A stretch of DNA of 24,000 nucleotides, taken from the NCBI GenBank assembly GCA_003649205.1, contig QMRC01000009.1, positions 1-24,000 of the forward strand. The letters are read 5' to 3'. This document shows, piece after piece, positions 18,567-22,207 of the stretch. The number at the start of each line of letters is the position of its first letter. Within the stretch, counting starts at the first letter, position 1. Origin of the DNA: Thermoprotei archaeon (GTDB lineage Archaea > Thermoproteota > Thermoprotei > Thermoproteales > B15-G16). The notes beneath the pieces were generated by a model. It was not told the origin of the DNA and did no database searches. It saw only the letters and a program-made list of their open reading frames with translations. A program made the translations under genes and the position numbers.

Positions 18567-18635
<69 letters not shown>

Positions 18636-18646
18636 ACCGTGTCTGT

Positions 18647-18679
18647 ATGCATGTGCAACGTAATGCATATATGCATGTG
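18647..18679. repeat. ATGCAT-based repeat cluster next to the att copy
   Basis: ATGCATGTG at 18647-18655 and again at 18671-18679. Perfect 14-bp palindrome ATGCATATATGCAT at 18663-18676. Confidence 0.6.
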
Positions 18680-18694
18680 ATTCAGGTTGGAATT

Positions 18695-18718
18695 CCTGTT
18701 GGAGTTACTGTTGGAGTT
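18695..18718 (+). repeat. 12-bp tandem direct repeat x2 (CTGTTGGAGTTA / CTGTTGGAGTTC) upstream of the recombinase fragment
   Basis: Read directly: 18695-18706 and 18707-18718 differ only at the last base. Confidence 0.6.
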
Positions 18719-18723
18719 CAGGT

Positions 18724-19287
18724 ATGTGGGGTATTGTGGAGGTGTTGCATGTTATGGATCCTAGCTTAGTGAATATCTCCCTCATTCCTCAGGATGTTAG
18801 GAGGAGGTTGCTTGAGTACGTACTTGCTAAAGGTGTTAGACCTAGTGACCTAGGTTACGATAGGACCTACATCTACAGGGTGAGGAAGGGGTTGAGACCT
18901 GTTACCGATGAGTTGCTTAGAGCTGTACTCAAGTACTTGACAGTTGATGAGTATGTTGAGGTTGTTGGTGAGAAACCACCTGTAGAGGAGGCTACCGTCA
19001 ACGACATAATCAAGGTGATCTCTAAGGCACTTAGAGATCCAGAGTTCAGGAAGATCTTGATCACGTACCTAGAGCGTTACCTAGGTGACTACATTAGGGC
19101 TTGCTCAAGTACGTACACGGTCAGTGAGGAGGATATTGAGTACTTCGTGAAGGTACTTAGGAGTGAAGGTAGGTCGGAGAAGACAATTAGGGAACACCTT
19201 AGGTACCTACGTAGAGCACTCAGCGACTTAGACTTCACACTATCTCCAGAGCCTGTTGAAGATGGCTTTAACCTCCTCGAGGGTTAG
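18724..19287 (+). pseudogene. Tyrosine recombinase/integrase, N-terminal fragment only (HTH-like region plus SAM-like core-binding domain); no catalytic domain
   Basis: VSEEDIEYFVKVLRSEGRSEKTIREHLRYLRRALSDL fits the phage-integrase N-terminal SAM-like pattern. After about residue 177 the ORF reads antisense to the opposing fragment and stops. It lies directly beside the att copy. Confidence 0.6.
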
Positions 19288-19488
19288 TGGTCTGTAGTTT
19301 ACCTTCTCCTGCTCAGGTCTGTACATTCTGAAGCTCTCGTACAGTTGCTTACCTAGGTACGGCTCTCTAGGAGTGATGACTACCTTGATGAACTTCTTAA
19401 GCGCCTTAGTGATGTCCCTAATCACGTACGGACTCTCACCACTGTTAATGAGCCCAGCAACGTACTCCCTAATGTCTTCTGGATACAC
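19240..19488 (-). pseudogene. Second tyrosine recombinase fragment (core-binding domain plus linker), truncated before the catalytic domain
   Basis: EDIREYVAGLINSGESPYVIRDITKALKKFIKVV ... NYRPLTLEEVKAIFN: a SAM-like domain followed by the LT.EEV entry into the catalytic domain, then a stop after NRLWR. The frame is closed 21 nt upstream of its GTG. Confidence 0.55.
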
Positions 19489-19506: not shown

Positions 19507-20088
19507 ATGTTACTCATGACCAGGCTATACAGCTACCAGGTAGTAATTACGTCGGTAACTGAGATCTTACTAGCAATATACCTACTTAGAGACCTTGGTA
19601 TTAGATTGAGCGACCTATATAGGGATGATGTGAGGAACGTAAGGTGTATTGGGTGGATTGCTCTGCTAGTACTCTTCTGTGAAGGTCTCTTCTTCTTGGA
19701 ATCACTGATCAGTGCTAACCTGTACTATAGTGGTGATGTAGGTAAATACTGGTCATGGTGGTATGACATGATTAAGCACGTACCTCTCTGGGCTAGGTAC
19801 TTCAACGCACTTGCCATACCATTCATATCAGGTGTATGTGAGGAAGTGATTTACAGAGCATATGGAGTAACAGCATTGGAGAAACTGGTAGGATTTAAGA
19901 AGGCAGTAATAATACAGGCAATAGCGTTCGGAGTTTTCCACGTATGGCCACTCCACATATTAATAACATTCACCATAGGACTAGTCTTTGGACTAGTGTA
20001 CGTTAGAAGAAGAAAACTAACAGTACTCACAGTAGCACACACCCTAGTTGACTTAATAGGCTTCTCAACCTTCATAGTACCTAGGTAA
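19507..20088 (+). CDS. CPBP family intramembrane glutamic endopeptidase (CAAX protease / Abi domain)
   Basis: The three CPBP motifs are present: EEVIYRAYG (EExxxR), FGVFHVW (FxxxH) and AHTLVD (HxxxD/N), in a multi-TM 193-aa protein. Confidence 0.8.
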   Translation: MLLMTRLYSYQVVITSVTEILLAIYLLRDLGIRLSDLYRDDVRNVRCIGWIALLVLFCEGLFFLESLISANLYYSGDVGKYWSWWYDMIKHVPLWARYFNALAIPFISGVCEEVIYRAYGVTALEKLVGFKKAVIIQAIAFGVFHVWPLHILITFTIGLVFGLVYVRRRKLTVLTVAHTLVDLIGFSTFIVPR

Positions 20089-20099
20089 GGAGTAGGGAG

Positions 20100-21209
20100 C
20101 TATCTCTTTAATCCCCTCATCGAGAGAATAGGGACCCTACCAAAGAATCCCATAGCAACCTCACTACCTGGTTCTTCAGGAACGAGAATCAACCTAAGAG
20201 CTTTAGGTCTACGAAATCTAGACACTAAAACCGCATAGTCGCGAATTAACATGAAAGTAGCTTCAAACCCCTCACTCATCGATATCGGTACCATATCTAG
20301 ACCAGCAACAGAGATAGAGGAGTAAAACATTAGATCATAAATATTGAGTACACCAGACCTAACGTACTCCTTAAGTACATCATCCTCAGCAAGAGGGAGC
20401 ATCACCTCACAGTAACCAAGACCACCCATGTTCTCAGCAACAGACCTCAAAACCTCATTAAGGAAATGAAGCAAGTAAACACAACCAACACTACCCAACG
20501 GACAACCCCACCACTCAAAAACTCTAGCAACACTCTCACTCAACCAAGGAGAGAGCGAGTAATCAATACCGAAGTGAGGGAAACCAATAGCATTAGCTAA
20601 CCTACTCAAGAACTTCAAAAACCTCTCACCTAACCCCTTAAGGAAACTCTCAAGAGATGAGTAACTAGGTTCAACAAATCGTAAATCACCTGGATAGAGA
20701 AGAGATAGAGAAACAGTATCACGAACATACTTAGTAGCTGGAAAGTACGGAGTTTCATACACATCACCAAACACAATAGCAAATCTCGTACAACCCCGCC
20801 AACCAAGCTCCTCACTAATCCTCCACACAATCTTAGCTACATGAGATAGAGCATCATGAGATAGAGCAAACTCCCACGGAACAAGAACCGAAGTAAAGAA
20901 CTTCTCACTAACAGAAAGACCCTCAACAACCTCACGAACATCAGCACTAGAGAACGAACCCCAGTAAACAGCAAAGTAATCAGCACCCACATCATCACAT
21001 ACCTCAGCTAACCTACTAATCCAATCAACACCACCTAAACCACTAGGAAAGACAACACGATAGGAGAGACACCTAATACCAAACTCACGAACGAACTCAC
21101 GAGCAACATCAATAACCTCACCCAACCTAGACAACAACCTCAAATCACAGTGGAAGCAGAGAGCCCTAATACAGACCATAGAGACCACACCCAAATACTC
21201 AAGGATCAA
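20100..21209 (-). CDS. DUF711 / UPF0210 family protein (short, divergent)
   Basis: Blocks colinear with recalled UPF0210 proteins: CIRALCFH (IRTITL-like), FGIDYSLSPWLSESVARVFEWWG (GIVDLSLAPTP...), GGLGYCEVMLPLAEDDVL (GGLSGAFIPVSEDAGM), SISVAGLDMVPISMS (CSVGLDMIAIPGD), ALRLILVPEEPGSEVAMGFFGRVPIL (AVRLIPV..VGD.VEFGGLLG). The start may instead be Met11 (21179). Confidence 0.65.
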   Translation of the reverse strand: MILEYLGVVSMVCIRALCFHCDLRLLSRLGEVIDVAREFVREFGIRCLSYRVVFPSGLGGVDWISRLAEVCDDVGADYFAVYWGSFSSADVREVVEGLSVSEKFFTSVLVPWEFALSHDALSHVAKIVWRISEELGWRGCTRFAIVFGDVYETPYFPATKYVRDTVSLSLLYPGDLRFVEPSYSSLESFLKGLGERFLKFLSRLANAIGFPHFGIDYSLSPWLSESVARVFEWWGCPLGSVGCVYLLHFLNEVLRSVAENMGGLGYCEVMLPLAEDDVLKEYVRSGVLNIYDLMFYSSISVAGLDMVPISMSEGFEATFMLIRDYAVLVSRFRRPKALRLILVPEEPGSEVAMGFFGRVPILSMRGLKR

Positions 21210-21630
21210 TACCCCTACACTTCATAAACTCAAGAAACCTACCCATAACATTAATAAGTATGTCACACAACGAAGACAACTTCCCATGAATATCAGTAGG
21301 TGAGACATAGACGTAGTTATGAATCAAGATATTACGTAGCTTAACCAACTCAATACATCTACCAACAACATCAGGAGGTAAGACACCATACCTACTCAAG
21401 ATCCTGAAGATGTCAGTATACGACTTAGGAACCTCACAACAGACCCTAGCAACCAAGAACTCACCAACGTCAATCAAGGCCTCAATAGCGACCTCAAGAT
21501 TACGTTCACAAGCATCAACCCTATCCTCACTACTGAGAAACTCCTCAAGAGAAAGCTGGGAAAAGAACCTCAACCTACCAACAGCACGCCAAAACCTCTC
21601 AACTCTAACCCTCACACCTGGAGTAGGCAT
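21199..21630 (-). CDS. hepT: HEPN-domain (DUF86) toxin of an MNT-HEPN pair
   Basis: RxxxxH motif in LVKLRNILIHNYVYV. I place the start at MPTPGVRV (21630); the track extension to 21774 lies inside the MNT gene. Overlaps the MNT 3' end by 26 nt. Confidence 0.75.
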   Translation of the reverse strand: MPTPGVRVRVERFWRAVGRLRFFSQLSLEEFLSSEDRVDACERNLEVAIEALIDVGEFLVARVCCEVPKSYTDIFRILSRYGVLPPDVVGRCIELVKLRNILIHNYVYVSPTDIHGKLSSLCDILINVMGRFLEFMKCRGIDP

Positions 21631-22037
21631 CAAGAACCTCCTCAATAACCCTATTCGAAAACCTCCTAAAAACAGGTTCAAAATCGAGAAACTGATCAAT
21701 AGCATTGAGATAATCATCCCAGAAAACCCCCTCATCCCTACAGAAAACCAACTTACCACAAGAGAAGATCTCATACCTAAGCACAGTATCAGCTAGATCA
21801 ACCGGAATAGCATCTACGTGAACACCAAGAACATCCTCAATAGCAAGACCAATATCCAAAACCCTACTCAAACAATCACCACCACAGTACCTCAACTTAA
21901 TAGCAACATCGACATCACTGTACGGCCTAGCAACACCAAGAGCCCAAGAACCAAAGAGAACAGCATACACAACATCCTCAAACCTAGAACAAACCTCCCT
22001 AATCACAGACACAACACGCTCAAGATCAAGAACCACA
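21605..22037 (-). CDS. mntA: Minimal nucleotidyltransferase (MNT) antitoxin
   Basis: GSxxxGxxxxxSDxD motif: LFGSWALGVARPYSDVDVAI. GTG at 22037 (VVLDLERVV) is preferred. The track start at 22099 would lie 7 nt from the tRNA and run through its putative promoter. Confidence 0.75.
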
Positions 22038-22071
22038 GAGAACCCACCAAAAAGCAGAGAAAGACAAAAAC

Positions 22072-22078
22072 ATAAAAA
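22072..22078 (+). promoter_or_regulatory. TATA-like box (ATAAAAA) upstream of tRNA-Thr
   Basis: Centre is about 32 nt upstream of the mature tRNA 5' end at 22107, compatible with a short leader. Confidence 0.3.
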
Positions 22079-22106
22079 CTCAACCAAAGAACACACCAAC
22101 AGAGAA

Positions 22107-22207
<101 letters not shown>

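Follow-up and report, generated by a model that had tools for sequence, protein, structure and literature searches.

The subject of this study is a block of three minus-strand genes, encoding a minimal nucleotidyltransferase (MNT), a HEPN protein and a DUF711 protein, that lies between a CPBP protease gene and a tRNA-Thr gene in a Thermoprotei archaeon of the order Thermoproteales. We read it as an ordinary type VII toxin-antitoxin pair followed by a stand-alone DUF711 gene, on resident DNA, with an extreme base composition that is a local case of a one-strand footprint anchored at tRNA genes; we put the probability of this reading at roughly 0.6. The window is the whole stretch of 24,000 nucleotides that was analyzed (positions 1 to 24,000 of contig QMRC01000009.1, assembly GCA_003649205.1), and the genome and the contig are called G000 and C9 below. 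A first-pass annotation of this DNA had named the genes as MNT, HEPN, DUF711 and CPBP, the first three codirectional on the minus strand, and the Pfam matches agree with all of these identities (Table 1).

The skewed zone was delimited by maximum likelihood, which placed change points at positions 20112 and 22110, and between them the plus strand is 69.8% A+C. The change point at 22110 coincides with the tRNA-Thr gene, which is the right edge of the zone and its proposed anchor. The composition follows a local gradient, from an A+C fraction of 0.84 in the 100 nucleotides beside the tRNA to 0.60 at the 3' end of the DUF711 gene. At 4-fold degenerate sites of the three genes, T accounted for 0.69 to 0.73 and A for 0.03 to 0.10, compared with 0.39 and 0.35, respectively, in the genome. 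Taken gene by gene, minus-strand T at these sites was 0.73, 0.73 and 0.69, and then 0.53 in the CPBP gene, which is encoded on the opposite strand; because the same polarity runs on into this oppositely encoded gene, the skew does not stop at the boundary of a cassette. When the three 60-nucleotide lines counted by the annotation were recounted, its values of 49, 47 and 47 A+C were exact. The amino acid bias that it described was also evident, with V, G, F, C, L and W together making up 39 to 44% of the three proteins versus 34% genome-wide, and the MNT protein does contain two lysines, in 143 residues instead of the 144 given.

The flanking DNA of each of the 37 tRNA genes was read in the direction of its tRNA. 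The sense strand had G+T fractions of 0.41, 0.445, 0.451 and 0.47 in successive 500-nucleotide bins upstream and of 0.52 to 0.54 downstream. The mean for the upstream 1 kb was 0.427, against 0.500 ± 0.0117 for random positions, and none of 5,000 permutations reached this value. In 11 of the 37 tRNAs the upstream 1 kb was at or below 0.38, where 1.8 would be expected, and in a single one it was at or above 0.62. The nearest upstream gene showed the same DNA polarity whether it pointed the same way as the tRNA (n = 24; mean, -0.134) or was divergent from it (n = 10; mean, -0.151). In the 3 kb that precede tRNA genes and the signal recognition particle (SRP) RNA gene, 38 of 102 open reading frames (ORFs) were skewed and 35 of the 38 had the same polarity, while the skewed ORFs downstream were split 15 versus 6 in the opposite way. 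The SRP RNA gene itself (C5:71620-71954) had values of 0.36, 0.35 and 0.40 upstream and 0.54 to 0.62 downstream, and the region of the Dph2 gene upstream of a tRNA-Met (C10:6357-9391) followed the same pattern, A+C-rich upstream and G+T-rich downstream. The polarity is thus fixed relative to the RNA gene, decays with distance and is independent of gene orientation, as expected of an anchored footprint. Other genera showed at most a weak version of the pattern; one genus had 0.452 upstream and 0.535 downstream, and another showed none.

Skew of this kind is widespread in G000. Across the 2.07-Mb genome, 10% of 2-kb segments depart from the norm by 0.10 or more. Among 1,877 ORFs of at least 100 amino acids, 397 (approximately 21%) show a deviation of 0.15 or more in G+T at third positions (GT3), 192 of them G+T-rich and 205 A+C-rich on the coding strand. 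Isolated skewed ORFs were similarly divided (74 versus 66), and 23 mixed adjacent pairs on opposite strands shared one DNA polarity. Plus-strand skew was correlated between neighbors on opposite strands (r = 0.54) about as it was between neighbors on the same strand (0.58). The balance of the two ORF classes and the shared polarity of opposite-strand neighbors argue that the skew is a property of the DNA strand and not of a gene's own transcription or codon selection. In strongly skewed ORFs the 4-fold sites held T at 0.72, A at 0.06, C at 0.08 and G at 0.14, values that the opposite class mirrors exactly, and at 2-fold sites T/(C+T) was 0.79 and G/(A+G) was 0.87. The G+C content was equal between the skew classes, and that of the block equals that of the genome. 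The annotation had proposed a genome-wide comparison as a check on whether such composition is common in this organism; it does recur throughout the genome in both polarities, although the block remains extreme, with 0.75% of 2-kb segments equally skewed. A hidden Markov model patch caller run on raw keto (G+T) content gave 142 G+T-rich coding strands versus 20 and was rejected, since a coding-strand baseline of about 0.53 biases it. Contig C3 of G000 (291,428 nucleotides) is a near-perfect palindrome with a mirror point at about 145,700. The ORFs and tRNAs of its first half recur as mirror copies in the second, as does tRNA-His at 145646-145719(+) and 145710-145783(-); the contig is probably an assembly artifact, and its first half alone entered the statistics.

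The strong form of the skew is confined to this genus. The DUF711 and Dph2 genes are equally skewed in the sister species and unskewed in other genera of the order, and Dph2, with 86% G+T at third positions, is 95% identical to its sister-species counterpart and 30 to 44% identical to those of order-mates. None of 60 other DUF711 loci had a tRNA-Thr gene beside DUF711, and DUF711 was unskewed in them. Weaker patches of either sign may exist outside the genus. In a genome of another genus (G024, locus L017), the DUF711 orthologue is A+C-rich on its coding strand (GT3 of 0.32). No description of such skew in Crenarchaeota was found in the literature searched.

The annotation had also placed the block inside an att-bracketed segment, a location that did not survive comparison with the sister genome (GCA_964647155.1). 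The two 69-nucleotide att copies are 100% identical and are inverted, not direct. In the sister genome, HEPN, DUF711, an intact CPBP gene (235 amino acids) and a POR operon are contiguous, with 88 to 92% identity across the shared block, and by blastn the sister contig runs through C9 from 21335 to 19478 and then jumps to C9 28012-34688. Because of this course, the alignment shows that G000 carries an 8.5-kb inversion (C9 19478-28011). It cuts the CPBP gene after codon 34, and the first 34 codons now lie inverted at C9 28012-28114, outside the window; both halves of the protein are recognizable across the break, and a 6-nucleotide microhomology is present at both junctions. The part left in the window holds the Rce1-like domain and is not full length. 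Unitigs from the source run are contiguous over both G000 junctions and an independent assembly also gives the G000 order, while run X3, from a related population, contains the joint without the inversion. With the inversion undone, the att copies become direct and flank a 6.7-kb element, composed of 18636-19477 joined to the reverse complement of 22208-28011. The restored order shows a decayed integrated element on the 3' side of the tRNA-Thr gene and the MNT-HEPN-DUF711-CPBP block on its 5' side, outside the element; the block is thus not among the genes that lie between direct att copies, 3' of the tRNA, with the integrase. The element contains a split integrase, RuvC-like (TnpB/IscB-type) fragments, a glycosyltransferase and an RHH protein, and its tyrosine integrase appears to have been divided into N- and C-terminal fragments. 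The inversion that scrambled the element came later.

The mntA-hepT genes are, on sequence criteria, a canonical and apparently intact type VII toxin-antitoxin pair, since both proteins passed the NCBIfam equivalog cutoffs (HepT with 83.4 bits against 60 for HepT_toxin, MntA with 63.7 bits against 60 for MntA_antitoxin), their motifs align with those of solved structures and the HepT motif is invariant among 18 homologues. The R-x4-H-x-Y motif of HepT is intact (RNILIHNY), with R99, N100, H104 and Y106 invariant in that alignment; the protein can be aligned with the HEPN toxins 7AE9 and 5YEP_B, RNILIHNY falling opposite LRNRLVHEY of 7AE9. MntA keeps the G-S-x10-D-x-D motif (FGSWALGVARPYSDVDV), which aligns opposite FGSYSQGTQHRNSDIDI of Shewanella MntA (5YEP_A). 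The two genes are bicistronic, with the antitoxin gene first and an overlap of 26 nucleotides, as in type VII systems. By analogy, HepT would be an RNase with an R-x4-H active site, neutralized by MntA through AMPylation of the tyrosine of R-x4-H-x-Y. The MntA, HepT and DUF711 starts are those placed by gene callers on independent contigs of the same organism, and GTG 22036 for MntA and ATG 21630 for HepT are likely the real ones. The DUF711 gene begins at TTG 21209 or GTG 21188, giving either an 11-nucleotide overlap with hepT or a 10-nucleotide gap. Given this tight packing, the three genes are likely cotranscribed in this genus. A search for RNA-seq runs showed none to contain the locus. 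The genome holds approximately 25 MNT-type and 8 HepT genes, and the closest HepT outside the genus is 51% identical. PADLOC returned MNT-like PDC-S09 matches only and left DUF711 unmatched.

Two further observations concern such pairs elsewhere. Judged by ORF translations, a large island on contig C2 of G000 (approximately 65 to 150 kb) is rich in MNT/HEPN pairs, PF01637-like ATPase motifs and glycosyltransferase-like ORFs; its plus strand changes from A+C-rich, up to about 117 kb, to G+T-rich, beginning at about 124 kb, an origin-like (-|+) switch. An uncultured Thermofilaceae metagenome-assembled genome (MAG) carries a 255-amino-acid fusion of an N-terminal HepT and a C-terminal MNT nucleotidyltransferase, divergent from DUF711 (L127:4109-4876, minus strand).

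On our reading, in the roughly 2 kb that precede a tRNA gene or the SRP RNA gene, the strand that runs 5' to 3' away from the RNA gene has turned T-rich, with G favored over A and T over C at 2-fold sites regardless of gene orientation, and with an effect that decays with distance. The outward strand may be repeatedly single-stranded because a polymerase moves away from the tRNA gene; this could be RNA polymerase, in divergent R-loop transcription, or DNA polymerase, in strand-displacement synthesis. In the block, the TATA-like element CATAAAAAC lies 28 to 36 nucleotides upstream of the tRNA 5' end and, on the other strand, 35 to 43 nucleotides ahead of the MntA GTG; it is possibly a shared bidirectional promoter element for tRNA-Thr and mntA and could fire both ways. 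Thymine is the sole base spared by both hydrolytic deamination and depurination. Hydrolytic damage at high temperature would push exposed-strand bases to T, through conversion of C to U and through purine loss with A-rule bypass, and A-to-G change would become visible where only transitions are tolerated. The habitat is presumably hot, the runs that hold this organism being hydrothermal-vent and sediment metagenomes. The outcome would be that the codons and amino acid makeup of the three proteins were rewritten. The more general claim, that tRNA and SRP RNA genes are fixed sources of kilobase-scale one-strand exposure that recode genes such as Dph2, with the same process at other anchors explaining the skew mosaic over about a fifth of the genes, we advance tentatively, with somewhat less than even confidence.

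Several results weigh against the footprint reading. Of the 397 skewed ORFs, only 38 (about 10%) are found in the 3 kb preceding a tRNA or SRP RNA gene, so that other anchors must exist for the remaining 90% or so. Among possible anchors, 23 candidate C/D-box small RNA (sRNA) genes showed a weak effect only (0.48 upstream and 0.52 downstream), the RNase P RNA gene showed the pattern downstream only, and the rRNA operon is not assembled in the MAG; polarity switch points numbered 22 (-|+) versus 9 (+|-), a weak result. Were divergent transcription responsible, it would need to prevail over sense transcription in the 24 upstream genes that share the orientation of their tRNA. In the G000-G001 comparison, which is unpolarized, divergence of the block is not raised (91.9% versus 88.4 to 92.3%), and the substitution counts are symmetric, as expected of an unpolarized comparison, and say nothing of direction; there is no sign of ongoing hypermutation in the block beyond that of its neighbors. 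Finally, the DUF711 proteins of this genus sit on a branch of 1.42 substitutions, with an odd composition flagged by the tree tool, and their monophyly with the other Thermoproteales copies received an approximately unbiased (AU) test P value of 0.03, for a group that was named after the tree had been seen.

That tree is also an argument for the origin preferred by the annotation, a horizontally acquired cassette, in which a 2-kb unit from a strongly strand-skewed donor replicon would have displaced or supplied DUF711. The DUF711 of this genus is at most 41% identical to any other and sits on a long branch, and the AU result stands against grouping with the order. The composition changes sharply at the tRNA, an integrase-bearing element occupies the same tRNA, and toxin-antitoxin genes, which are mobile, are numerous in this genome. 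However, a long branch is what a compositional shift would produce, the block falls on the 5' side of the tRNA and beyond the element when the inversion is reversed, and the actual element (22208-28011) has no keto skew. The block does not differ from the genome in G+C, its 4-fold skew continues with the same polarity into CPBP, and the tie of polarity to tRNA genes extends to 35 of 38 upstream ORFs, among them Dph2, an order-wide single-copy gene. Additionally, the context is conserved in the sister species, the 51% identity of the nearest HepT outside the genus gives no sign of a recent donor, and a search for extrachromosomal skewed donor contigs found no contig that was uniformly skewed. 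Transfer of the block is therefore a weaker reading than resident DNA, and we consider it unlikely. The skew could instead stem from the expression of the genes themselves, by transcription-associated mutation of the non-template strand or by codon selection in a highly expressed operon. In the block it is the coding strand that is rich in G+T, with a skew that peaks where the operon begins, at its 5' end, and this is the classical direction of transcription-associated asymmetry. Genome-wide, however, the sign of the skew does not follow the coding strand: A+C-rich coding strands are as common as G+T-rich ones, genes that lie upstream of a tRNA and share its orientation have A+C-rich coding strands, and CPBP shares the DNA polarity of the block from the other strand. 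By Pfam, the 20 longest G+T-rich ORFs include aIF2-gamma, Dph2, MoeA, a MiaB-like protein, NFACT, Cas6, Csa3 and transporters (one of the MFS type), not ribosomal or elongation-factor genes. We regard an origin in the genes' own expression as quite improbable.

The annotation had left a choice between an undescribed three-gene module and mere adjacency, and the neighborhoods of DUF711 decided for adjacency. The protein (362 to 369 amino acids, a single DUF711 copy in the genome) scored 102.6 bits against PF05167 (cutoff, 25) and its profile matched PDB 2HA9 with an E value of 3.2e-27 over residues 49 to 422, while against the UPF0210 equivalog PRK05313 of NCBIfam it reached 61.1 bits, in the C-terminal region only, far from the cutoff of 440. 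Its short subfamily (approximately 320 to 380 amino acids) occurred in 27 of 31 genomes of the order and at 176 confirmed loci in GTDB species of Thermoproteota, and genomes of one family (f3) have the short form together with a separate form of 453 to 526 amino acids. In 79 short-DUF711 loci outside the genus, surveyed with 5-kb flanks, a codirectional MNT-HEPN pair upstream of DUF711 was found in none, nor was a CPBP gene found nearby in any. The nearest approaches were one divergent HepT-MNT fusion and two loci with a pair 2 to 3.5 kb away; no neighbor family occurred in more than 12 of the 79, and the neighbors were assorted housekeeping genes (disulfide oxidoreductase, amino acid kinase, NurA, thioredoxin and PNP). 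A real module, with DUF711 as a coexpressed and functionally coupled accessory or effector partner of HepT-MntA, would fit the overlapping or nearly abutting genes, the retention of the arrangement in two species at 88 to 91% protein identity, and the 240-amino-acid NTP_transf_2 protein convergent with DUF711 in four or five Thermofilaceae loci, besides the one divergent fusion. Against these stand the absence of recurrence among the 79 loci, the lack of a PADLOC match for DUF711, and the abundance of MNT genes (about 1% of genes here), which makes occasional proximity expected. The predicted MntA-HepT-DUF711 complex had an ipSAE of 0.00, which counts neither for nor against a module. We therefore judge a module very improbable: DUF711 is a stand-alone, short UPF0210-like gene that is widespread in Thermoproteota and adjoins the pair by chance. 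The full arrangement was seen in the same genus only (in the sister species), and it looks as if, in this genus alone, the toxin-antitoxin pair came to lie between the tRNA-Thr gene and DUF711. No functional study of DUF711 was found in the literature searched. As a separate observation, the convergent neighbor in Thermofilaceae MAG loci L084, L091, L094 and L106 is a protein of about 240 amino acids (359 in L106) with a weak NTP_transf_2 match, at approximately 6.1 to 7.2 kb; it has a close homologue elsewhere in G000 (C10:12866), and the synteny is lineage specific.

Table 1. Features of the block and of the neighboring integrated element. Positions are those of the window and of contig C9; those above 24,000 lie beyond the window.
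Feature	Position	Strand	Evidence or remark
Partial tRNA-Thr copy (45 nt from the 3' end and 24 nt of flanking DNA), second att copy	18567-18635	-	69-nt repeat; blastn
187-aa ORF, putative N-terminal integrase fragment	18724-19287	+	ORF listing; no family match
Left inversion breakpoint	19478-19483	.	blastn versus sister contig; TCTGGA microhomology, mirrored as TCCAGA at C9 28012-28017
CPBP (Rce1-like) protease remnant, 5'-truncated, 193 aa	19507-20088	+	Pfam PF02517, E 2e-16
DUF711 gene	20100-21209	-	Pfam PF05167, E 2.8e-29
HepT-like domain (PF01934) in ORF	21199-21774	-	Pfam, E 1.2e-20
hepT, HepT-type HEPN RNase toxin (by analogy)	21199-21630	-	143 aa from ATG 21630
Polbeta/NTP_transf_2 domain (PF18765/PF01909) in ORF	21605-22099	-	Pfam, E 2.9e-14
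mntA, MntA-type minimal nucleotidyltransferase antitoxin	21605-22036	-	143 aa from GTG 22036
TATA-like A/T-rich element CATAAAAAC	22071-22079	.	Read directly from sequence
tRNA-Thr (anticodon CGU)	22107-22183	+	ARAGORN; Rfam RF00005, 71.5 bits
att copy inside and just past the intact tRNA-Thr	22139-22207	+	69-nt repeat; blastn
RHH protein	C9 23082-23357		
Family 2 glycosyltransferase	C9 23770-24666		
Integrase C-terminal catalytic part (putative)	C9 26857-27258	-	Weak Phage_integr_3 match
RuvC-like (TnpB/IscB-type) fragments	C9 27282-27967		Weak RuvC-I match

An Rfam scan of 43 kb gave the tRNA as its sole match, and no C/D-box candidate reached the Rfam gathering score in that interval. Under a strict definition (C, D', C' and D boxes with 9- to 14-nucleotide spacers), the 23 C/D-box candidates compared with none in reversed or complemented controls; examples are C9:56087-56135, C9:64006-64055 and C9:64115-64164.

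The footprint, and not the gene trio, is the interesting part of this locus. For annotation, extreme composition in this lineage is no marker of foreign DNA, and a toxin-antitoxin pair that adjoins a conserved gene should not be taken for a new defense module. If the proposed mutation process is true, the footprint would naturally record which of the two DNA strands becomes single-stranded near heavily used RNA genes in this archaeal genus, and the process would be strong enough to reshape proteins (2 lysines in 143 residues). It would also inflate apparent divergence and distort gene trees, making the DUF711 and Dph2 of this genus look 30 to 40% identical to those of order-mates. Such a process would be relevant to thermal damage of DNA, to R-loops or origin-independent DNA synthesis in archaeal cells, and to false composition-based calls of transfer.

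Compared with known systems, the pair resembles the type VII HepT/MntA system of Shewanella oneidensis (SO_3166/SO_3165; PDB 5YEP and 6M6U) in gene order, with MNT first and HEPN overlapping it. Like that pair and the HEPN/MNT system of Aphanizomenon flos-aquae (PDB 7AE2 to 7AE9), it consists of proteins of about 140 amino acids with both catalytic motifs, and the solved chains are distant from the block proteins (phmmer E values of 2e-9 and 7e-3). Unlike the solved systems, the block has an archaeal host, a strongly shifted composition (2 lysines in MntA) and a third gene tightly downstream. DUF711 shares a homologous fold with the UPF0210 protein SP0239 of Streptococcus pneumoniae (2HA9); canonical UPF0210 proteins have about 450 amino acids, and the protein here is about 80 amino acids shorter than the 446-amino-acid form and is a separate paralogue where genomes carry both. 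In ECOD, UPF0210/DUF711 belongs to the ten-stranded beta/alpha barrel group together with PFL and RNR (PMC4390871).

The skew itself has partial counterparts among known strand asymmetries. In bacterial replication the leading strand carries a G+T skew, and the outward strand is G+T-enriched here as well. Mutagenesis associated with tRNA transcription reportedly affects only the gene and its short flanks. Transcription-associated mutagenesis at tRNA loci (PMC6130373) is anchored at a heavily transcribed fixed site, as is the skew here, and the bidirectional strand asymmetries at promoters and CpG islands (PMC2817419) likewise have a fixed start site and a mirrored sign on its two sides. Unlike these known asymmetries, the one described here extends over roughly 2 kb of protein-coding DNA, raises T to 70% of 4-fold sites and ignores gene orientation, and it is much stronger upstream than downstream and strong in this genus only.

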